Numbered from the stretch's first letter, positions 36,262 through 55,547 are shown. The stretch: 64,000 bases of DNA from Candidatus Woesebacteria bacterium (GCA_017992725.1 JAGOOB010000001.1:553-64552); one strand, 5' to 3'. The notes: a model not told the origin generated them from the sequence alone. Translations and numbers: made by a program.

Positions 36262-37221
36262 TTATTCTTTGACTAACTGGGCAGTAATCACTCCTCGACG
36301 CAAGGTAGTTCCTTCTGGAACGCAGGTCACTAATTTTAATTGACGAACGTCAACTCGTTGAGCAAGAATAAAAGTGTCATCGGCTTTGACTTCAGTTTTG
36401 CCTTGAACAACATAGGTATATTTGACGTTGTCATAGGTTAAATATATTTTGTCACCTTTTTCCAGAGTCATTATTTTACTAAAAATTGAATTGTAACGGC
36501 GAGGATTGTTTTCACTTGGATTATAAAATTGACGCAAAACCGAATGACCAAATATCACTGGAGCACCCAACTGTCCAGGCATTCCAGTTCCAGGATAATG
36601 AATTAAACTTTGATTAAGATCACTTCCACCAACTCGAACCTTGGCATTACTAATCCCTAAACGAGGAATGTCTAGCGTATATTCAATAAACTCGCTTGTG
36701 CTTAATTCTACGTTTTCTAGATCGTCACTAAACCAATTAGTTAGGTCTGTAAAATCAAGATCCTGATCTAAAATCACTGGTTCAGTTTCAACACTGTAAT
36801 CGGTAGTGCTATTTTCTACTATTTCAGTTTGAGCTTGAGCGGAAATTAATGGATTGCCCAACAGTAATTGCGAATTAGGTATTGGAGATAATAAAGTAAT
36901 TTCTTCTTCTTTTTTCCATGGTAAATAATAATCAATAATGGGCCAAAGCGCAGATAAAGCTAACGCCAAGCCAAAAACTATTAATGCCAATGGCAAAAAA
37001 GTTGCCCCCACTCTCACTATTTTGGGTAAGCGGCCCCAAAAATTTAACTGGATTTGCTCATCTAAATTTTTTTCGCCCTGCTGACTGGCTTTATCTTGTT
37101 TCAAAAAGTAATTAACTTTTTTATTCAAGTCTTGTATAGGCACTCCATCTCTTAGTGCTTGGCGATAAAGTTTTAACAACTGTTTTTTTTGTTTGGTCAG
37201 TTGCGGATTTGTTTTAGCCAT
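36262..37221 (-). CDS. Sortase family transpeptidase (membrane anchored)
   Basis: N-terminal TM segment. Catalytic-type motifs: His in PVIFGHS, the Cys motif LVTCVP, and a C-terminal Arg (TLRRG). Confidence 0.7.
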   Translation of the reverse strand: MAKTNPQLTKQKKQLLKLYRQALRDGVPIQDLNKKVNYFLKQDKASQQGEKNLDEQIQLNFWGRLPKIVRVGATFLPLALIVFGLALALSALWPIIDYYLPWKKEEEITLLSPIPNSQLLLGNPLISAQAQTEIVENSTTDYSVETEPVILDQDLDFTDLTNWFSDDLENVELSTSEFIEYTLDIPRLGISNAKVRVGGSDLNQSLIHYPGTGMPGQLGAPVIFGHSVLRQFYNPSENNPRRYNSIFSKIMTLEKGDKIYLTYDNVKYTYVVQGKTEVKADDTFILAQRVDVRQLKLVTCVPEGTTLRRGVITAQLVKE

Positions 37222-43580: not shown

Positions 43581-44252
43581 GTGAAAAAATTTTCTATTGC
43601 TCAAATTTGCCAAGCTTTGATCTTTCCTGATTTTTGTCAACACTGTCAACAATTAGGACCAATGTTGTGTGAGTCTTGCTATCAATTGATTGATTTTTTT
43701 TGGCAAGAGGATTACAAAGAATTTTTTAGTGAAAATTTTGATCAAGTTTACTTCGATCAAGTAAAAATCATGGCTGCTTTCAAACCACCCCTTAGTTCGC
43801 TGATTAAAGCACTCAAATATCATCACCACAGTCGAGCTGCTAAATTTTTAGCCCAGATGCTCTATTTTTACGTCAACATTGATTATCACAATATCGACAT
43901 TATTAGCTTCGTACCCATGCATCCACAAAAAAGAAAAAAGAGAGGCTACAACCAGACCCAATTGATTGCTCAAGAATTATCCCTGTGGAGTCAAACACCC
44001 TGTTTAGAATTATTGGTAAAAAGCAAAAATACAAAACCTCAAGCCCAAATTACTAACAAGGATAAAAGATTGAAAAGATTGAAAGACAGCTTTGCCATTT
44101 CCACTTTCTATCAAAATGCTTTATTTAAGCAAAATATTTTACTAATTGATGATGTGATTACCACTGGAGCTACTAGCAATAATGTCAGCCAAATCCTCAA
44201 AAATAATGGAGCCAATTCCATAACAGTATTGGCTTTAGCTTCTAAATTATAA
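43581..44252 (+). CDS. comFC: ComF family protein (ComFC-like): N-terminal zinc ribbon plus phosphoribosyltransferase domain
   Basis: Cys pairs (CQHCQQ...CESC) and the PRTase PRPP-binding motif LLIDDVITTGAT. GTG start at 43581. Confidence 0.75.
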   Translation: MKKFSIAQICQALIFPDFCQHCQQLGPMLCESCYQLIDFFWQEDYKEFFSENFDQVYFDQVKIMAAFKPPLSSLIKALKYHHHSRAAKFLAQMLYFYVNIDYHNIDIISFVPMHPQKRKKRGYNQTQLIAQELSLWSQTPCLELLVKSKNTKPQAQITNKDKRLKRLKDSFAISTFYQNALFKQNILLIDDVITTGATSNNVSQILKNNGANSITVLALASKL

Positions 44253-44268
44253 GCAGTTAGTAATTTAC

Positions 44269-44297
44269 TTGAATTCCTCGAGAGAAAATGCTATAAT
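44269..44297 (+). promoter_or_regulatory. Near-consensus sigma70-type promoter driving ssrA (tmRNA)
   Basis: TTGAAT (44269-44274), a 17-nt spacer, then TATAAT (44292-44297). The mature tmRNA 5' end lies 17 nt downstream of the -10 hexamer. Confidence 0.55.
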
Positions 44298-44313
44298 CAG
44301 GCGTTCATTAACA

Positions 44314-44715
44314 GGGGATGTATTGCATTGACGTCAGTCAACTTTAATCATCGCAGATCATCTTTGGTGAAAAGATGTCAAACAGCACCAATAAATAACT
44401 GTCAAAAACAGTTTAAAAACAGTAGCTAATAAAATCGCCAGTCTTTTTGACTTCGGTTATGTAGCTGCTCCAGCTTTTGCTTAATTGCAATTGCTGGCAT
44501 CTAGTGATGGGCTCTTATCGGCGACTCACATTAGGTGACAACCCAGTCGATTGGCAGAAATAAAGAAGCAGATCGCTTTATTTCCAAGAATATGATCTGG
44601 ATGAAACAAAAAAAGTTTGTTTATTCACTTATTGTTTCAAATCAAAAATAAACTAAATCTGTAGAGATCGTTAAAGATTGATTAGCGGACGCGGGAGCAA
44701 AACCCGCCATCTCCA
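44314..44715 (+). ncRNA. ssrA: Transfer-messenger RNA (tmRNA, SsrA)
   Basis: 5' GGGGATG pairs with 3' CATCTCC-A, including a G3:U wobble (the alanine identity element). The 3' GGACGCGGG-(7-nt loop)-CCCGCC block matches the E. coli tmRNA T-arm stem exactly. An internal ORF reads ...IASLFDFGYVAAPAFA-TAA (44425/44437-44484), a plausible proteolysis tag. CCA is only partly encoded. Confidence 0.75.
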
Positions 44716-44750
44716 CAAAACACTATTTATAGCTTTTAATAAATGATTTT

Positions 44751-46133
44751 TTAAAGCTCTATATCTAAGCAATGGTGCTTTTGACAAATGTTATTTTCTA
44801 AAGATTCTTTTATTTTTAACTCATCACTTGAATAAGCTTGGTTCATAATAAAAAAAACATTTCTACTGGCTAAGCTCAATAATTCATTCTGCAAGTTTTG
44901 ATTTTGTGAACTATCTCTTTCAATTAAGTAAACGGAAGAATTATTTTTATTAATTAATAGGTAATAACTAATTAAATCAACGTCATCCATAAGTAGCACA
45001 ATGCTGTTTGATGGAATTTTTTGTTTAATTGTATTTTGAATATTTTCCCTAAATAAAAAGCCATAGTTATTAAAAGAATTAATCGCCAAGATTAATAAAG
45101 TTATCATCATAAAAAACTCATAACGCAATTTTTGATGAAATTGGGCAAAAACGAATACAACCAATAAACTAAATAACACTAATTGTCTGGCTAAAAAAAC
45201 TGGAAAAAATAAAATCGAGATAATAGTCGCCAAACCAATTGTGCCCGTAGACGAAAAAAATAAAAATTGATTAATTAACGATTTGTCTTTCTTTAAATTA
45301 GTTGTAATTATTACCAAAAATAGCGGAAAATAAAAACCAACGAAGTCATGACCAAACAATAATTTTGTTTGATATACAAACCAATTTAAATCAAAATAAG
45401 GTACACTTCCAGCAATAGCATTACCATTTTTAATGGGTAACAAATAATTTAACAAAATACAAATTTGATAAATAGAGCAAACAAAAAATAAAAACAAACT
45501 GCAAAATATATTTTTACTATGCATCTTTTCTTTTTTAAAAAACAAGAAAATAGCCAAAAAAAACAGTGAAAAAATTAACCAAATAACTCCATAACTAATA
45601 AAAAAACAGATACTTAATAAGAAGCCAATTAAAATAGTTTTATAAACTTTTGGGTAAAAAAAGTTAGAAAAAATGACATAAATTAACAAAAGCATCAAAA
45701 AAATTAATAAAGCATAAGGTCGAACTTGAAAAGACAAATTAATTAATAATGGATGTAGAGAAAATAAACTTATTGCTAAATAACTAGTCTTACGACTTTT
45801 GAAAAATAAACTAATTCTATAAACTAAGTAAATGCTTGGAAAAAACCAAATCAGACTGGTCAAACGTAACCACCAATCCGCATGCCCAATTATTAACATT
45901 AATTTTAAATAAATATAATATAGAGGTGGATGCCTAAAATCGGAAAAATTCCCATTCGAAAAAAATAATTCCCTCCAGCTTAAGTCTGTTGAATTAAAAT
46001 AGGAAATTGCTTCATCATTCCAAAAATCAGTGGTCAATCCATAATAAAAACGAATAATTAACCCAATTAAAAAACTAATTACAGCAATAATTAGCCATCT
46101 ATTTCGACTTACCGATAACCGCATTCTCCCCAT
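44751..46133 (-). CDS. GT-C fold membrane glycosyltransferase (GT39/GT83-like, PMT/ArnT family)
   Basis: 460 aa, about 11-12 TM helices, with a DE motif in the first extracytoplasmic loop (FWNDEAISY) typical of the PMT/ArnT family. Very AT-rich codon usage. Confidence 0.6.
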   Translation of the reverse strand: MGRMRLSVSRNRWLIIAVISFLIGLIIRFYYGLTTDFWNDEAISYFNSTDLSWRELFFSNGNFSDFRHPPLYYIYLKLMLIIGHADWWLRLTSLIWFFPSIYLVYRISLFFKSRKTSYLAISLFSLHPLLINLSFQVRPYALLIFLMLLLIYVIFSNFFYPKVYKTILIGFLLSICFFISYGVIWLIFSLFFLAIFLFFKKEKMHSKNIFCSLFLFFVCSIYQICILLNYLLPIKNGNAIAGSVPYFDLNWFVYQTKLLFGHDFVGFYFPLFLVIITTNLKKDKSLINQFLFFSSTGTIGLATIISILFFPVFLARQLVLFSLLVVFVFAQFHQKLRYEFFMMITLLILAINSFNNYGFLFRENIQNTIKQKIPSNSIVLLMDDVDLISYYLLINKNNSSVYLIERDSSQNQNLQNELLSLASRNVFFIMNQAYSSDELKIKESLENNICQKHHCLDIEL

Positions 46134-50839: not shown

Positions 50840-51904
50840 CTAATAACTAGGCAGGAAAATCTTAACATTATCTGGTTTAATCACCACTTCTTCAAAGCCT
50901 CGTTCCACAATAATTCTAGCGGCTTTTCTTACCGCACCTTTAAGCGTGCGTTGTAACGTACGTACTCCAGCATCAAAACCTAAAGGTCTAACTAACTTAG
51001 GCCAAACCGCTTCATCAATCTTAAATTGGTTTTCTTTCAAACCAGCTTCTTTGAGAATTTCAGGCAAAATATACTTTTTGGCAATCACAATTTTCTCTTC
51101 ATCACTGTAGGACGGCATATCAATTCGTTCCATCCGGTCTAAAACAGCGGCTGAAATACGACGGGTGTTGTTACAAGTGGCAATAAAAATCGCTTGACTT
51201 AAATCTACCGGATAATTAATGTAATTATCGACAAAAGCATGATTTTGCGCAGGATCTAGCAGTTCAACCAGAACACCCATAATATCATTATTGGCTTCTT
51301 CCGCGGATCGATCGATTTCATCAAGTAAAATCACTGGATTCATCGTTTGGGCAGTACAAAGACCCTGAATTACCGCCCCAGGTTGAGCCTCCAAAATTAA
51401 GCGTGATTCACCACGCAATTCTTTGGCAGAAGCCATTCCTCCAACCGGAATTCTTAAAATTTGGCGGTTCAGGGCTTCCGCTAAAGAATATGCAAAAGTA
51501 GTTTTACCTGTTCCTACCAAACCAACTAGCAATAATACTGGCGCAGAAAATTCCTGATCAGCAAAATTTTGTTTTTGTAAATTAAGAATAGCTAAATACT
51601 CCAAAAATCGATCTTTAACCTCTTTTAAACCATAATGATGTTCATCAAGAACTACTTTAGCCTGTTGAATGTCTAAAGTGTCTTCACTTTTTTTACCAAA
51701 TGGGATCTTGGTTACCCAGTCTAAGTATCGAGAAACTTTATCATATTTCTCGTCATAATTGCCCAATTTTGCACTCCGCTCCAAAAAAACTAATTCTTTT
51801 TCCAGCTTTGATTGTAATTCTTCGGGAAGTTGAACTTGTTTAATTTTAGCTCGTAACTCATCAAGCTCCTGATTCAATATTTCATCAGAGTTAAGTTCAG
51901 ACAT
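50840..51904 (-). CDS. Lon-derived AAA+ ATPase: coiled-coil plus AAA+ module only, no N-terminal substrate domain and no protease domain
   Basis: YLDWVTKIPFGKKSE ... HYGLKEVKDRFLEYLA ... LLLVGLVGTGKT ... LLDEID ... VELLDP ... FIATCN ... DRME ... AGVRTLQR align motif-for-motif with the LonA AAA+ module. The protein ends where the Lon proteolytic domain would start. Confidence 0.8.
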   Translation of the reverse strand: MSELNSDEILNQELDELRAKIKQVQLPEELQSKLEKELVFLERSAKLGNYDEKYDKVSRYLDWVTKIPFGKKSEDTLDIQQAKVVLDEHHYGLKEVKDRFLEYLAILNLQKQNFADQEFSAPVLLLVGLVGTGKTTFAYSLAEALNRQILRIPVGGMASAKELRGESRLILEAQPGAVIQGLCTAQTMNPVILLDEIDRSAEEANNDIMGVLVELLDPAQNHAFVDNYINYPVDLSQAIFIATCNNTRRISAAVLDRMERIDMPSYSDEEKIVIAKKYILPEILKEAGLKENQFKIDEAVWPKLVRPLGFDAGVRTLQRTLKGAVRKAARIIVERGFEEVVIKPDNVKIFLPSY

Positions 51905-51911
51905 AAGTAAA

Positions 51912-52430
51912 TTAAGATTGTTTTGCCCTAAGCGTCAAGCCTAAACCGATACTTAACATCGCAACAGCTAAAAATAACAAACTAACGGTGGTAGAACCAG
52001 CATTAGGCAGGGTAGTGGTGCTAGTTGTAGCAACAGTTTCAAGATTGCCACTGGCAGTACTACTGTTACCAATTGTTAACACAAAATCTAAAGTCTCTGT
52101 TGCTGTAGATAAATCAAATTGATGCTCTCCTTCACTTAAAGACGAGATTAGCGTACTCCAACTACCCTCCTCATCTGCAGTCGCCGTTCTAGTTAAGTCA
52201 TCAATAGTAATTGAAATAACGGCCGAGGGTGAAGCTAAACCAGTTAAGGCAAAAGTCCCCCCAGAATAATTATATTCCTTCAAACTCCCACCCAAATCTA
52301 AATTAGAAACATCCATGGTACCTATGGCTGTAATTTGCAGCGCGGCCGCCCTTACTTTACTACTAAAAAAGAGTGGGAAAATAATCAATAAAGAGATAAG
52401 ACAAATTACAATTTTTTTCATATTTCTCAT
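51912..52430 (-). CDS. Secreted, cell-wall-sorted protein with an LPNAG sorting signal (sortase substrate)
   Basis: N-terminal signal peptide and S/T-rich body. The C-terminal LPNAG, hydrophobic stretch (VSLLFLAVAMLSIGLGLTL) and RAKQS form a classic tripartite sorting signal. Confidence 0.7.
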   Translation of the reverse strand: MRNMKKIVICLISLLIIFPLFFSSKVRAAALQITAIGTMDVSNLDLGGSLKEYNYSGGTFALTGLASPSAVISITIDDLTRTATADEEGSWSTLISSLSEGEHQFDLSTATETLDFVLTIGNSSTASGNLETVATTSTTTLPNAGSTTVSLLFLAVAMLSIGLGLTLRAKQS

Positions 52431-52444
52431 CTAGTCTAACATTT

Positions 52445-53383
52445 TTACTTTTTTTGTGCAGCTAGCAATTCTAACATTTGATAACGACGTAATAAACCAG
52501 TTTTAGCTCCATAATATCTCACTACGTTACTAGCGTTACGAACTCCCCAAACAATAGCCTCCTCAATTTCTCGATTATCGATCAGTGCTGCAATATAGGC
52601 CGAGGAAAAAGCATCACCAGCACCAGTATCATCAACAGTATGATCGCCCTGACCTTCAAAGACAAATTTCTTTTTTCCATACAAATAAACTTCACCACCC
52701 TTTTTCCCCATGGTAACAATTACTTGAGGAAAATTAGCTAAAATTTCTTTTTGCACTGGAGCCAACAAAGTCCACTCTTGTTGATTAACAAAAAAGACTT
52801 CACAAGGAATGTCGTTAAAATCAAATGTTCTTTTCACTAATAAATCAATCTCGGCTTTGCCTGGATTCCAAGATAATTTTGTATCTTGATCTTTAAGCAA
52901 AGTGGCAAAAATTTTAGTCAAAGTAGCCTGCTGACCAGCTATACTTGATAGATGAACCCAATTAGCTTGAGTCAGCCAGAACGCAGGAATATCGTAAGGG
53001 TCGAGCATCGATGCCGCTCCGCGATAAGTCAAAACAATTCTTTCACTATCTTTCGTAACCAACACCACACTGCCACCCGTACGCTCTAATTTTTCTCTAA
53101 CTAGTAGTTGGGTGGCCACTCCTTCTTTTTCGAAATCTCGAATAATCAAATCTGAAAATTCGTCTTGACCAGTTTCTGAAATCACTGCTACTTTGAAACC
53201 TAAACGACTGAGAGCAACAGCAGTATTACTGGCTCCACCTCCGGTAAAAATATGAAAATCACTTAAGTCTAACTTATCTCCATAGGTCAGAATCTGCTGA
53301 TTTTTATTACGTTTAGCTTCCCAATCTTTGGAACTAATAAAAATGTCGACTAGTGAAGATCCAATACTAATGCAGTTATACAT
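52445..53383 (-). CDS. PfkB-family sugar/nucleoside kinase (ribokinase-like)
   Basis: N-terminal GGGASNTA glycine motif and C-terminal DTTGAGDAF. The start was set to the internal ATG at 53383 (MYNCISIGSSLVDIF), in line with ribokinase N-termini. Confidence 0.75.
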   Translation of the reverse strand: MYNCISIGSSLVDIFISSKDWEAKRNKNQQILTYGDKLDLSDFHIFTGGGASNTAVALSRLGFKVAVISETGQDEFSDLIIRDFEKEGVATQLLVREKLERTGGSVVLVTKDSERIVLTYRGAASMLDPYDIPAFWLTQANWVHLSSIAGQQATLTKIFATLLKDQDTKLSWNPGKAEIDLLVKRTFDFNDIPCEVFFVNQQEWTLLAPVQKEILANFPQVIVTMGKKGGEVYLYGKKKFVFEGQGDHTVDDTGAGDAFSSAYIAALIDNREIEEAIVWGVRNASNVVRYYGAKTGLLRRYQMLELLAAQKK

Positions 53384-53494
53384 AAGGCAGGTTCTTTTAT
53401 TGTACAAGATACTAAACAACAATTGCAAGAACGGAGATAAAAAATAGTGATAATGAGTAAAAACAAGCAAACCATTGCCGACTCAGAATATTTT

Positions 53495-54151
53495 TTATTT
53501 TTGACGTTCCCGCATTTCATCCTCAAATAAGTGCAGTGCTACTTTAAATTCCTCCAAATTATCCACAATCCGATAAACCTTTGATTCTTTATAGCCAATT
53601 AAAAAATTCTTGTGAATAACCTCCATGACCTCATACCAAAAATGGCCATACAAGATCAGTGGTTTGTGATTGCCATAGTGGAGATGAGCCAAAAGCCAAG
53701 CCGTTGCCCATTCGCTTAACGTACCAGTCCCACCCTGAAAACAAACAAAAAGATCAGCATTGTCCATCAAACCAGCCATTCGTTCCAGATAATTGGCAGT
53801 TTTAATTTCTTGATCTACAACATTTTTTGCATCACGTCCTTCAAATTCTGGCATATCGACTGGCCTAAAAGTCACGGCTAAAGTTTTACCATTTTTTGAT
53901 TTAGCTCCCCTGGTTGCAGCTCCCATTACTCCCGGCCCACCGCCATTAACCACTATTTTATTTTGACTAGCAACATAAGCTGCCACCTCATACGCAGCCC
54001 GACACACTGGATGATCTTCTGCTATATCTGCACTGCCATAAAAAGCAACTCTATCTATCCTGGTTAAAAGCTTGACCTTGGGATTAGCTTTGGGATTAGC
54101 TTTGGGATTGGCTTTGGTAACATTAATTTTTTTTTGCTCATGATGAGTCAT
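53495..54151 (-). CDS. LOG-family nucleotide 5'-monophosphate phosphoribohydrolase (TIGR00730-type), with an N-terminal KANP x3 repeat
   Basis: GGGPGVMGA and FQGGTGTLSEW are the LOG family's two glycine motifs. The KANPKANPKANP repeat is encoded by a 12-bp x3 tandem repeat at 54079-54114. Confidence 0.75.
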   Translation of the reverse strand: MTHHEQKKINVTKANPKANPKANPKVKLLTRIDRVAFYGSADIAEDHPVCRAAYEVAAYVASQNKIVVNGGGPGVMGAATRGAKSKNGKTLAVTFRPVDMPEFEGRDAKNVVDQEIKTANYLERMAGLMDNADLFVCFQGGTGTLSEWATAWLLAHLHYGNHKPLILYGHFWYEVMEVIHKNFLIGYKESKVYRIVDNLEEFKVALHLFEDEMRERQK

Positions 54152-54813
54152 TGTAATTCCTTTTTTAACTTATTAAATTCAGTTTTAAAATTATCTGCGT
54201 TAAAGACAGCTGAACCAACAGCTATTTGATCAACACCAGCTTTTTGTAAATCTTTAATCTGTTCCTGCTTAATGCCACCATCAACCACTATTTTAATTGG
54301 TTTATTAGATTGGTTAATTTTGTTTTTTAATTCTTCAATTTTAGCAAAAATTAAAGAATTAAAAGTTTGACCTTGTGCTCCGGCCTCAACAGCCATTAAT
54401 AAGACTTGATCCAAGTACTCCCAGGCATGTTTTTCAATATTTTCTAGTGGCGTAAAAAGATTAATGGCTAAACCTGCCTGCCAACCAGCTTTTTTGATCT
54501 CTTCCAGAAAATCTAATTGGTAAGACATTTTTTCTATTTGACCAATCACTGATTGGGTTGGTAATTTTTGACCACAATCAATTAACTCCCACACATAATC
54601 CATTGGCTCTTCCGTCATTAAATGAAAATCAATTGCTAAATCGTCGAAATCAAAATCTACTAAATCCGTAGGGTTGATGGTGATATTATCAGTAAAAACC
54701 GCGTCAACAATGTCTACTTGAATCACTTTGATGGTTGGCACTTGTTTGACTAAATCCAATTGCTGAGCAAAAGTTGCCAAACTATCAGTTAAAATGGCGG
54801 GATGAATTTGCAT
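54148..54813 (-). CDS. rpe: Ribulose-phosphate 3-epimerase-like TIM barrel
   Basis: MQIHPAILTDS (compare IAPSILSAD), a D.HLM metal-binding block, VDGGI and GSAVF C-terminal motifs. Confidence 0.7.
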   Translation of the reverse strand: MQIHPAILTDSLATFAQQLDLVKQVPTIKVIQVDIVDAVFTDNITINPTDLVDFDFDDLAIDFHLMTEEPMDYVWELIDCGQKLPTQSVIGQIEKMSYQLDFLEEIKKAGWQAGLAINLFTPLENIEKHAWEYLDQVLLMAVEAGAQGQTFNSLIFAKIEELKNKINQSNKPIKIVVDGGIKQEQIKDLQKAGVDQIAVGSAVFNADNFKTEFNKLKKELQ

Positions 54814-54819
54814 AGTTAT

Positions 54820-55260
54820 TTATTTTTCGTAAGCAATAATTTGCTGAATCCTTCTTAAATGACGCTCATCTTGATCCGCTTGAGTATGCAAAATAGTATC
54901 CAGACAAGCGAGAACTTCTTCTTTAGTTAAATAATCTGCACCAAAAGCAAAAACATTGGCATGATTATCAGTGATGGCATGTTTTGCAATTTGTTGATTA
55001 TAAACATCAACTGCTCTAATACCTTTAACTTTATTAGCGGCGATTGCCATACCCGAACCAGACCGACAAAATAACAGTCCAATGCTACCAGGCTCTTGAC
55101 TAACTTTTTCAGCTACGCGAAAAGCAAATTGTGGGTAGTCATCCGCTGGATCTAATTGTTGAGGACCGAGATCAAACACTGGTCCTTCTACGCTCTCCTT
55201 AATTTCTTCTTTGAGTTTAAACCCACCGTGATCGCTAGCAATATAAATTTTCATAAACAT
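54820..55260 (-). CDS. rpiB: Ribose-5-phosphate isomerase B
   Basis: IYIASDHGGFKLKEEI ... DYP ... LLFCRSGSGMAIAANKVKGIRA is the RpiB/LacAB signature. The start is ambiguous (ATG at 55260 or 55254). Confidence 0.85.
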   Translation of the reverse strand: MFMKIYIASDHGGFKLKEEIKESVEGPVFDLGPQQLDPADDYPQFAFRVAEKVSQEPGSIGLLFCRSGSGMAIAANKVKGIRAVDVYNQQIAKHAITDNHANVFAFGADYLTKEEVLACLDTILHTQADQDERHLRRIQQIIAYEK

Positions 55261-55298
55261 ATCATAACAAAGAATTAGTAAAAGCTATAAATAAAAAA

Positions 55299-55327
55299 AT
55301 CCCGCCTTAGTAAAAAGGCGGGATCTT
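55299..55327 (-). terminator. Rho-independent terminator of the small ORF 55347-55547
   Basis: Minus strand: AAGATCCCGCCTTTTTACTAAGGCGGGATTTTTTTATTTAT, a 9-bp GC-rich stem followed by a T-run. Confidence 0.7.
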
Positions 55328-55346: not shown

Positions 55347-55547
55347 TTATTTTTTCTTCAATACTGGCATGCCAGTTCGAGTAGTTTCAACCACCATATA
55401 ACCGGCTGGAACCTCACTCAAAGAACCGTCACGGATATCTCGTGCAAAGAAATAAATAGTTTGCACCCGACCATTTTTCAAGGTCACATCACGAGTGTGA
55501 AGATAGTAGGTCTGACCCTTTTTGTTGGTATAGCTAAAAGCTGCCAT
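55347..55547 (-). CDS. Small hypothetical protein (66 aa)
   Basis: Has its own RBS (GGAAGAAGGAGAC), an upstream inverted repeat and a strong terminator. No recognisable family. Confidence 0.5.
   Translation of the reverse strand: MAAFSYTNKKGQTYYLHTRDVTLKNGRVQTIYFFARDIRDGSLSEVPAGYMVVETTRTGMPVLKKK

Follow-up and report, generated by a model that had tools for sequence, protein, structure and literature searches.

The 64,000-nt stretch of DNA studied here (hereafter the window) comes from a Candidatus Woesebacteria bacterium, and the matches of its proteins are named as Microgenomates or 'Pacebacteria', of the Candidate Phyla Radiation (CPR), whose members are tiny and depend on hosts. An initial annotation of the window had singled out positions 52445–55260 as a four-gene cluster that would feed scavenged nucleotides or ribose into the pentose-phosphate pathway (PPP). 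We found four open reading frames (ORFs) in this interval, all on the minus strand, and their Pfam matches agree with the identities originally proposed: a ribose-5-phosphate isomerase B of the Cys type (rpiB, 54820–55260; LacAB_rpiB, E-value 1.1e-37), a barrel of the ribulose-phosphate 3-epimerase family (Rpe, 54148–54813; Ribul_P_3_epim, 9.5e-41) in which Gln replaces the first metal-binding His, a CPR-specific protein of the LOG/PpnN type (53495–54151; LDcluster4, 1.9e-16; Lysine_decarbox, 1.3e-12) that is a predicted nucleoside monophosphate (NMP) N-glycosidase, and a CPR-specific PfkB-family kinase of 312 aa (52445–53383; PfkB, 1.9e-36). All four assignments lie far beyond chance in a profile search of the window proteins. 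RpiB alone reaches a curated NCBIfam cutoff, at the subfamily level; Rpe, LOG and PfkB fall far short of every equivalog and are therefore divergent members of their own families.

Translation of rpiB probably starts at the second ATG (55254; MKIY...). The pfkB ORF can be extended to 53470 with a TTG codon, but the close homologs are all about 312 aa long, which places the real start at the ATG at 53383. The first three genes are tightly packed, with 6 nt between rpiB and rpe and a 4-nt ATGA overlap between rpe and LOG, and 111 nt separate LOG from pfkB. Hence the description of the cluster as tightly packed and co-directional holds for the common strand and for three of the genes, but not for pfkB, which lies behind a promoter-like element (see below); as the minus strand carries almost every gene from 6.7 to 64 kb, the co-direction of the quartet carries little weight.

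Catalytic residues and predicted fold of the LOG protein

The LOG protein passes the Pfam thresholds of PF03641 (48.5 versus 27) and PF18306 (60.5 versus 26.3), and scores below the NCBIfam cutoffs of TIGR00730 (59.6 versus 96.35), TIGR00725 (53.4 versus 106.9) and the LOG equivalog NF058542 (43.5 versus 300). According to work on the structure and mechanism of E. coli PpnN (10.1101/2025.04.13.648610), the 2'- and 3'-hydroxyls of the ribose are held by a Glu and an Arg in PpnN and LOG proteins alike, and water is activated by the Glu of the signature motif. We matched the residues of the window protein to the R241/E223 set of PpnN through HMMER alignment to the structures 5wq3 and 1wek. The GGGPG(V/I)M loop (GGGxxGxM), E104, R124 and GGTGTLSE147 are invariant in all 81 LOG orthologs; in members that are only 33–43% identical, the Gly loop, R124 and E147 stay invariant and E104 is replaced by Gln in a single distant protein (P0262). 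Note that the PGGxGTxxE motif, here QGGTGTLSE147, lacks its leading Pro, in place of which Q, K, E, R or N is found depending on the sequence.

The AlphaFold (AF2) model of the protein has a predicted local distance difference test (pLDDT) score of 79.5 and a predicted template modelling (pTM) score of 0.79. Its top 50 Foldseek matches are all LOG, YgdH or PpnN proteins (E-values down to 9.5e-12, TM-scores around 0.7), type-II LOGs ranking first, and sequence identity to solved structures is 18–27% over the aligned region. An exhaustive search of 1.84 billion cluster representatives recovered 24 LOG representatives at E ≤ 1e-30, after which the scores drop steeply to generic LOGs; judged from these searches, the protein belongs to a compact, distinct, CPR-specific subfamily. 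We predict it to be a nucleoside 5'-monophosphate N-glycosidase, whose products would be the free base and ribose-5-phosphate. We rejected a 'lysine decarboxylase' identity, which is a legacy Pfam name only, the structural neighbours being all nucleotide hydrolases. The initial concern that the LOG homolog might prove lysine decarboxylase-like, or a non-hydrolase, is thus answered by the retention of the catalytic residues and by a fold that matches the catalytic LOGs.

Another possibility is that the LOG-like domain is a ligand sensor or regulator, as is SLOG in Thoeris ThsA, which would tune Rpe or the PPP flux to a nucleotide with no hydrolysis. Indeed, the best Pfam model is the SLOG model LDcluster4 and not the classical LOG one, SLOG domains are known as sensors of nucleotides (PMC7272460, PMC11204291), fusion to an enzyme domain, as described below, is typical of regulatory modules, and LOG is unusually conserved (55–78%, versus 31–50% for its neighbours). 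However, the full catalytic set, including the water-activating Glu of xGGxGTxxE, is invariant subfamily-wide, and the top structural neighbours of the model are all enzymes, with ThsA, DprA and sensor-type SLOG domains absent among them. We regard a purely sensory role as quite improbable.

The initial annotation had also drawn attention to three KANP units at the N-terminus of LOG. This tandem repeat is real (54078–54117, minus strand; period 12, 3.3 copies and 96% matches according to Tandem Repeats Finder), but not its significance: three copies are specific to the window protein, a 97%-identical relative having two and all other aligned homologs a single one, and residues 1–25 have pLDDT values below 50 and are predicted to form a disordered tail. 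We discarded the repeat as a functional feature because it is a recent and trivial 12-nt expansion in a disordered tail; on this distribution, it is a product of recent slippage and not a trait of the LOG family.

RpiB and the Gln-type Rpe

RpiB scores 129.5 bits against LacAB_rpiB and passes both NF004051 (136.3 versus a cutoff of 135) and TIGR00689 (135 versus 88.3), the equivalogs TIGR01120 and TIGR02133 remaining below cutoff. D10, H11, C65, N76 and R137 are invariant among 77 orthologs; C65 and the D10–H11 pair correspond to the catalytic Cys and the Asp–His pair of E. coli RpiB (C66, D9 and H10).

Rpe passes the Pfam threshold (139.8 versus 21.1) and falls short of NCBIfam TIGR01163 (130.5 versus 212.6) and NF004076 (133.8 versus 165). 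Alignment to solved RPEs revealed that the HxD motif is changed to QxD: Gln32 occupies the position of the first metal His, which leaves the four-ligand His-Asp-His-Asp metal set incomplete. Q32 is present in 72 of 80 orthologs. D34, D37, H64 and D178 are invariant, among them the catalytic acid/base pair (D34 and D178), and G145, the DGG motif and S201 of the phosphate loops are conserved. A Gln at the first metal His is also found in six of seven distant Rpe sequences linked to LOG, including the fused form at locus L086 (see below). Gln-type Rpe proteins linked or fused to LOG occur across several CPR lineages (L084, L086, L089 and L093); in the L084 protein, a Gln stands at the second metal His too.

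Conservation of the quartet within Microgenomates

A search for the same quartet in relatives, which the initial annotation had suggested, was carried out by scanning species-representative genomes. It gave 578 loci, the best 80 of which were used to count gene orders. The order rpiB-rpe-LOG-pfkB is conserved in 80 of these best 80 loci, with median gaps of 4.5, 12 and 37 nt, and about 10 kb of flanking gene order (from an NTPase gene to that of RNase J) is also kept in most of them. Five divergent loci of the Woesebacteria type retain the quartet only, the surrounding synteny being lost. In these five loci, the genes are packed more tightly, with 4-nt overlaps that include LOG/pfkB, and have acquired new neighbours related to nucleotide metabolism (MazG, SurE and cytidylate kinase, Cmk). 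The possibility that the genes are not conserved together, as the initial annotation had allowed, is therefore not borne out, since the quartet survives even where its flanks have been replaced.

Many of the species-representative records that carry the cluster (L003–L080) are titled 'uncultured Pseudomonadales' and look mislabelled, as does the closed genome CP011212.1, titled 'TM6' though its proteins are named Pacebacteria.

Association of LOG with Rpe in distant lineages and Rpe–LOG fusions

We then looked up the genomic context of LOG proteins that are 38–45% identical to that of the window. At L084, the order is Rpe-LOG-TK(N)-TK(C)-class I FBA-x-PfkB-2-hydroxyacid dehydrogenase, where TK stands for transketolase and FBA for fructose-bisphosphate (FBP) aldolase. 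Rpe and LOG are adjacent on one short contig, and further lineages display the orders ADH-GAPDH-Rpe-LOG and TIM-RpiB-PGK-GAPDH-Rpe-LOG, the latter with a toxin–antitoxin insert between Rpe and LOG and a gene for an NrnA-like DHH phosphoesterase after LOG; in one lineage, LOG is divergently oriented from a neighbouring PfkA-type phosphofructokinase (PFK) gene. The NrnA-like DHH/DHHA1 phosphoesterase gene overlaps the 3' end of LOG in one lineage (L089, 6542–7537; L090, 1962–2957), and its product scores well under the NrnA cutoff. NrnA-like enzymes degrade short RNA to NMPs, and would thus supply the substrate of LOG.

In P0266, a protein of 406 aa, a complete Rpe domain is fused to a complete LOG domain. 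The protein is identical in two independent assemblies (L086 and L087), its gene lies 2 nt downstream from that of RpiB and contains no internal stop. When P0266 was used as a query, 114 of the top 120 clusters (378–466 aa) had both domains, so that the fusion is present in at least 114 clusters; the named ones belong to candidate division WWE3 and Nomurabacteria and lie on contigs of up to ~1 Mb. No internal stop was found in the three fusion loci checked (L086, L087 and L096, the first two encoding the same protein). At L096, from WWE3, the order is RpiB-x-[Rpe~LOG]-x-TK(N)-x-TK(C)-PfkB-class II FBA-2-hydroxyacid dehydrogenase.

Other apparent fusions were rejected. A triple RpiB-Rpe-LOG fusion (P0484, 554 aa) is a gene-calling artefact: its RpiB and Rpe parts are separated by an in-frame TGA, and the six internal TGAs of its contig all fall at gene ends, which indicates that TGA is a true stop misread with the wrong code. 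Public gene calls of L094 and L095 took TGA as a sense codon, even though the internal TGAs of these contigs are all located at the ends of genes, giving artificially extended or fused proteins that include this false triple fusion. Fusions of LOG to a methyltransferase, to trypsin/PDZ and to AmiA are single cases, the last two with a truncated LOG part.

In these gene neighbourhoods, what stays constant across phyla is that this LOG subfamily is coupled to Rpe and, in most cases, to RpiB, transketolase and aldolase as well. The conserved quartet order, the catalytic residues, the Rpe–LOG adjacency in distant operons and the fusions together strongly support a link between LOG and the PPP, and hence the part of the initial proposal according to which LOG, RpiB and Rpe would pass ribose-5-phosphate into this pathway.

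These data also bear on the view that the cluster reflects an inherited gene order without any functional link between its members: rpiB and rpe would be PPP housekeeping genes that LOG and pfkB happen to adjoin. The extended synteny around most of the 80 loci, the presence of nearly all genes on one strand, and, as described below, a pfkB gene that has its own promoter and is followed by no terminator would all fit this view. However, the quartet persists where all flanks are replaced, Rpe–LOG adjacency recurs at 38–45% identity in unrelated contexts, and the two proteins are fused in several phyla. The fusions largely refute mere synteny, which we consider very improbable; more generally, this view and the sensor one are both disfavoured because the catalytic set is invariant and fusions exist.

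Possible substrates of the PfkB kinase

PfkB displays the features of its superfamily, with a Pfam score of 126.4 bits and D13, G48-G49, N53 and G254-A255-G256-D257 invariant in 78 orthologs. In a fold search, it matched ribokinase-like structures at about 1e-21, the matches to ribokinases, 2-keto-3-deoxygluconate (KDG) kinases and a nucleoside kinase being equal. Single-sequence, profile (PDB) and fold searches do not discriminate between substrates: YdjH, ribokinases, the nucleoside kinase MJ0406, adenosine-kinase-like proteins and KDG kinases obtained similar scores. A PsuK-like pseudouridine kinase was rejected, as the similarity amounts to 25 bits only.

The initial annotation had cast PfkB as a ribokinase-like entry enzyme, a role that our data do not support: the protein fails every ribokinase test applied, and its context in other lineages suits a sugar-phosphate kinase working with FBP aldolase at least as well. 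It scores below the ribokinase equivalogs TIGR02152 (106.9 versus 299.65) and NF008353 (82.4 versus 341), and is 23% identical to E. coli RbsK (E-value 1e-13). The ribose-contacting residues of E. coli RbsK (N14, K43 and E143) are replaced in the CPR proteins by L or V, by G, S or A, and by A or G, respectively, in an alignment with the verified E. coli sequence, and what is kept (D16, GG, N46 and D255 of RbsK) are generic catalytic elements.

PfkB could instead be the missing ATP-dependent 1-kinase of fructose-6-phosphate (F6P) and sedoheptulose-7-phosphate (S7P). Acting alongside FBP aldolase and transketolase, such a kinase would allow the complete conversion of pentose phosphates into trioses with neither transaldolase nor PfkA (the sedoheptulose-bisphosphate bypass). 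The closed genome of a related Microgenomates bacterium is reported to contain RPE, RPI, TKT and a 'ribokinase', and to lack the oxidative PPP, transaldolase, PFK and nucleotide synthesis, LOG being unmentioned (PMC7143001). In two lineages, a PfkB of the same broad clade as that of the window adjoins an FBP aldolase. These two aldolases are not homologous to each other, being of class I at L084 and of class II at L096, where pfkB overlaps both the TK(C) and the FBA gene. These two PfkB proteins are 37% identical to each other and 26–31% identical to that of the window (E-values of 5e-30 to 3e-40), i.e. closer to it than is RbsK, and LOG itself adjoins a PfkA-type PFK in the lineage mentioned above. 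The loss of the RbsK ribose contacts points in the same direction, as do the lid residues K37 and R115, which show little or no variation and line up with K27 and R105 of E. coli Pfk-2, at positions where RbsK has Thr and Asn. This last alignment, however, is unreliable at 19% identity, and several other observations speak against the proposal: by BLASTP, the protein barely resembles E. coli Pfk-2 (25 bits), the NCBIfam hexose-phosphate kinase models give about 36 bits (TIGR03168, 36.8 versus 216.4; TIGR03828, 36.6 versus 292) versus 107 for ribokinase, the Microgenomates pfkB adjoins LOG (with a 4-nt overlap in 11 loci) and not an aldolase gene, and the PfkB proteins of L084 and L096, in which GN replaces the GG dipeptide, may be paralogs of the window protein rather than orthologs. 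Archaeal PFK-B enzymes fall outside the Pfk-2 branch, so that a lack of membership in this branch leaves Pfk activity possible. Given the non-homologous partner aldolases and the absence of PFK and transaldolase from the related genome, we consider this proposal, which concerns the role of one part and not the module as a whole, a serious rival to a ribose or nucleoside kinase, although we place it somewhat below even odds. In sum, PfkB belongs to the module and would be either a ribose/nucleoside entry kinase or an F6P/S7P 1-kinase.

Transcription signals

An intrinsic terminator (55296–55327, minus strand; 13-bp stem with six GC pairs, followed by a T-run) ends an upstream 66-aa ORF and forms the 5' boundary of the unit. 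In 23 of 75 related loci, the 160 nt that precede rpiB contain a comparable GC-rich hairpin, versus 3–5 of about 78 loci for the internal junctions and the region after pfkB. The 66-aa ORF itself (55347–55547, minus strand), which directly precedes rpiB and has its own strong terminator, is 68–98% identical over about 70 species genomes, which sets it well above the neighbouring genes in conservation, and matches no Pfam or NCBIfam model.

Reading of the sequence upstream of rpiB revealed an extended –10 element, TGtTATGAT (55261–55269, minus strand), 6 nt before the second rpiB ATG, and TGnTAnnnT is kept at the identical distance in the ~20 closest loci. No Shine–Dalgarno sequence was seen before rpiB on inspection of the window and of these loci. 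The proximity of the extended –10 element to the ATG and the lack of a Shine–Dalgarno sequence suggest that the rpiB mRNA is probably leaderless.

A consensus scan of the LOG–pfkB spacer detected a sigma-70-like promoter, TTGCAA-18-TACAAT (53399–53428, minus strand). The blocks TCTTGCAA and TCTTGTACAAT are invariant across seven close loci, the remainder of the spacer being unalignable, and this element is thus a predicted, conserved internal promoter. No terminator was found after pfkB. In this lineage, rpiB, rpe and LOG would therefore constitute one tight unit, with an additional start predicted for pfkB and the downstream genes; because of the conserved promoter before pfkB, co-transcription of the four genes is not established.

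A proposed route from nucleotides to the non-oxidative PPP

We interpret the locus as the version, in this lineage, of a module that extends across CPR and couples the breakdown of nucleotides to the non-oxidative PPP, a reading to which we assign a probability of roughly 0.6. Family membership, the conservation of catalytic residues and gene order, the fusion and the operon context are what the sequences show, from which we infer substrates, flux direction and physiological role. In this scheme, LOG would hydrolyse the N-glycosidic bond of NMPs derived from scavenged or turned-over RNA into a base and ribose-5-phosphate, RpiB would convert ribose-5-phosphate into ribulose-5-phosphate, and the Rpe-family enzyme would convert the latter into xylulose-5-phosphate. 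Transketolase and FBP aldolase, whose genes are part of the operon in other CPR lineages and presumably lie outside the window in this genome, would then turn the pentose phosphates into fructose-6-phosphate and triose phosphates for fermentation. PfkB would act either at the entry, on ribose or a nucleoside, or as the F6P/S7P 1-kinase that lets aldolase replace transaldolase. The freed bases and ribose-5-phosphate (via phosphoribosyl pyrophosphate, PRPP) could also be reused to rebalance the nucleotide pool.

Several points weigh against this interpretation. Within the 75 closest genomes, the gene-order argument is weakened by the high general synteny. LOG scores under the NCBIfam LOG and TIGR00730 cutoffs, so that its substrate range is a prediction, and activity of Rpe on ribulose-5-phosphate is assumed, given the Gln at the metal-His position. 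The Rpe and LOG steps are not consecutive, RpiB acting between them, so that their fusion is not a case of simple channelling. A cell unable to make nucleotides would seem to waste them by hydrolysis, unless supply exceeds demand. Finally, no transketolase or aldolase gene is present among the genes of the 64-kb window.

The neighbouring genes raise the alternative that LOG serves to sanitize the nucleotide pool and not to carry out bulk catabolism, destroying non-canonical or surplus NMPs (IMP, XMP) released by house-cleaning NTPases. In that case, ribose-5-phosphate would arise as a by-product for RpiB and Rpe to recycle, which is compatible with the catabolic scheme. The window encodes a DUF84 inosine/xanthosine triphosphatase, a NUDIX protein and a uracil-DNA glycosylase near the cluster, and the quartets of the divergent loci are flanked by the MazG, SurE and cytidylate kinase genes mentioned above. 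Such neighbours, however, vary from lineage to lineage, while the link to Rpe, RpiB, TK and aldolase and the fusion are constant, and we consider sanitation unlikely as the main role.

A broader version of the catabolic scheme can be put forward tentatively, as a possibility that we rate well below that of the module itself. Many CPR bacteria lack glucokinase, phosphofructokinase, transaldolase, sugar transporters and nucleotide synthesis (PMC7143001). LOG, the Gln-type Rpe and RpiB, together with a split TK, FBP aldolase and PfkB, might constitute an unrecognised 'nucleotide-ribose shunt' that requires neither RuBisCO nor transaldolase and would be a main entry of carbon and energy in many CPR lineages devoid of glucokinase, PfkA and sugar transporters; the Gln-type Rpe may differ in metal or substrate.

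Other features of the window

From 6700 to 64000, the GC skew is negative throughout and nearly all genes lie on the minus strand, a strand bias and skew that resemble the strand disparity and proposed one-directional replication of other Microgenomates (PMC7143001). A low-GC island (44000–46000; GC 0.285 versus about 0.37 elsewhere), which may have been acquired horizontally, contains a gene for a PMT_2-type glycosyltransferase (44751–46133) and adjoins a plus-strand ORF with no family match (43581–44252). On the 3' side of pfkB, a minus-strand gene for a small LPXTG-like surface protein (51912–52430; weak NCBIfam matches) starts 14 nt past the pfkB stop codon, and a sortase gene (36262–37221, minus strand) lies 15 kb away from it. 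The next gene encodes a Lon-like AAA+ protein (50840–51904, minus strand) with AAA and Lon-lid domains and no protease domain, and is kept downstream of the quartet in most related loci.

Comparison with known systems

The carbon and energy sources of CPR bacteria (Patescibacteria) are a standing question. The accepted, and only described, CPR route from nucleotides to glycolysis is that of AMP phosphorylase and RuBisCO, and RuBisCO is sparse across CPR lineages (PMC6389311); the main text of the same paper names neither Pacebacteria nor Woesebacteria as RuBisCO carriers. If our interpretation is correct, hydrolysis by LOG followed by the non-oxidative PPP would provide a second, simpler nucleotide route, from Microgenomates to WWE3 and Nomurabacteria, and would reassign hundreds of entries labelled 'ribulose-phosphate 3-epimerase', 'LOG family protein', 'TIGR00725 family' or 'ribokinase'. 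Our searches of the literature on LOG, phosphoribohydrolase, ribokinase and nucleoside salvage in CPR/Patescibacteria returned nothing relevant except one CPR paper that interprets LOG as a cytokinin activator (PMC6031116), a reading of CPR LOG genes that calls for caution. The enzyme chemistries are known; it is their conserved and partly fused pathway arrangement that we did not find described in the literature searched.

The CPR LOG shares its fold and catalytic residues with E. coli PpnN (YgdH), the type-II LOGs Cg1261 of C. glutamicum and TT1465 of T. thermophilus, and Rv1205 of M. tuberculosis, and its predicted reaction is the one catalyzed by the PpnN/LOG enzymes (NMP + H2O to base + ribose-5-phosphate). 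PpnN has been discussed as a bridge between nucleotide and ribose-5-phosphate metabolism (PMC10311079). In contrast to PpnN, the CPR LOG has no alarmone-binding flanking domains and its motif Pro is replaced; compared with known LOGs, it is unique in being embedded in, or fused to, pentose-phosphate genes. Likewise, the CPR Rpe belongs to the same TIM-barrel family as canonical RPEs (PDB 3inp, 2fli and 3ovp) and retains their two catalytic Asp residues, their phosphate loops and the second metal His, but differs from them by the Gln at the first metal His and by scores below the NCBIfam rpe cutoffs.

The pathway formed by AMP phosphorylase, ribose-1,5-bisphosphate isomerase and form III RuBisCO in archaea and CPR serves a similar purpose, delivering the ribose of nucleotides to lower glycolysis (PMC6389311). 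The LOG module, by contrast, differs from it in all enzymes and reactions: it would cleave hydrolytically to ribose-5-phosphate, which would then enter the non-oxidative PPP, and is predicted to operate without RuBisCO, CO2 incorporation or a bisphosphate intermediate. Another parallel is offered by E. coli PsuK and PsuG, a PfkB kinase and a ribose-5-phosphate-releasing glycosidase encoded by overlapping genes, whose 'phosphorylate, then cleave' logic would be shared if the CPR PfkB were a nucleoside kinase. However, the CPR PfkB bears hardly any specific resemblance to PsuK (25 bits), LOG and PsuG are not related, and LOG would cleave an N-glycosidic bond, not a C-glycosidic one.

The transaldolase-independent sedoheptulose-bisphosphate bypass is known from cellulolytic clostridia. 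This bypass, in which PFK and FBP aldolase make the PPP independent of transaldolase, brings together TK, a kinase and FBP aldolase, as do the CPR operons, in lineages reported to lack transaldolase (PMC7143001). The known kinase of the bypass is of the PfkA or PPi-PFK type, whereas that of the CPR bacteria would be a divergent PfkB-family protein whose activity is predicted.

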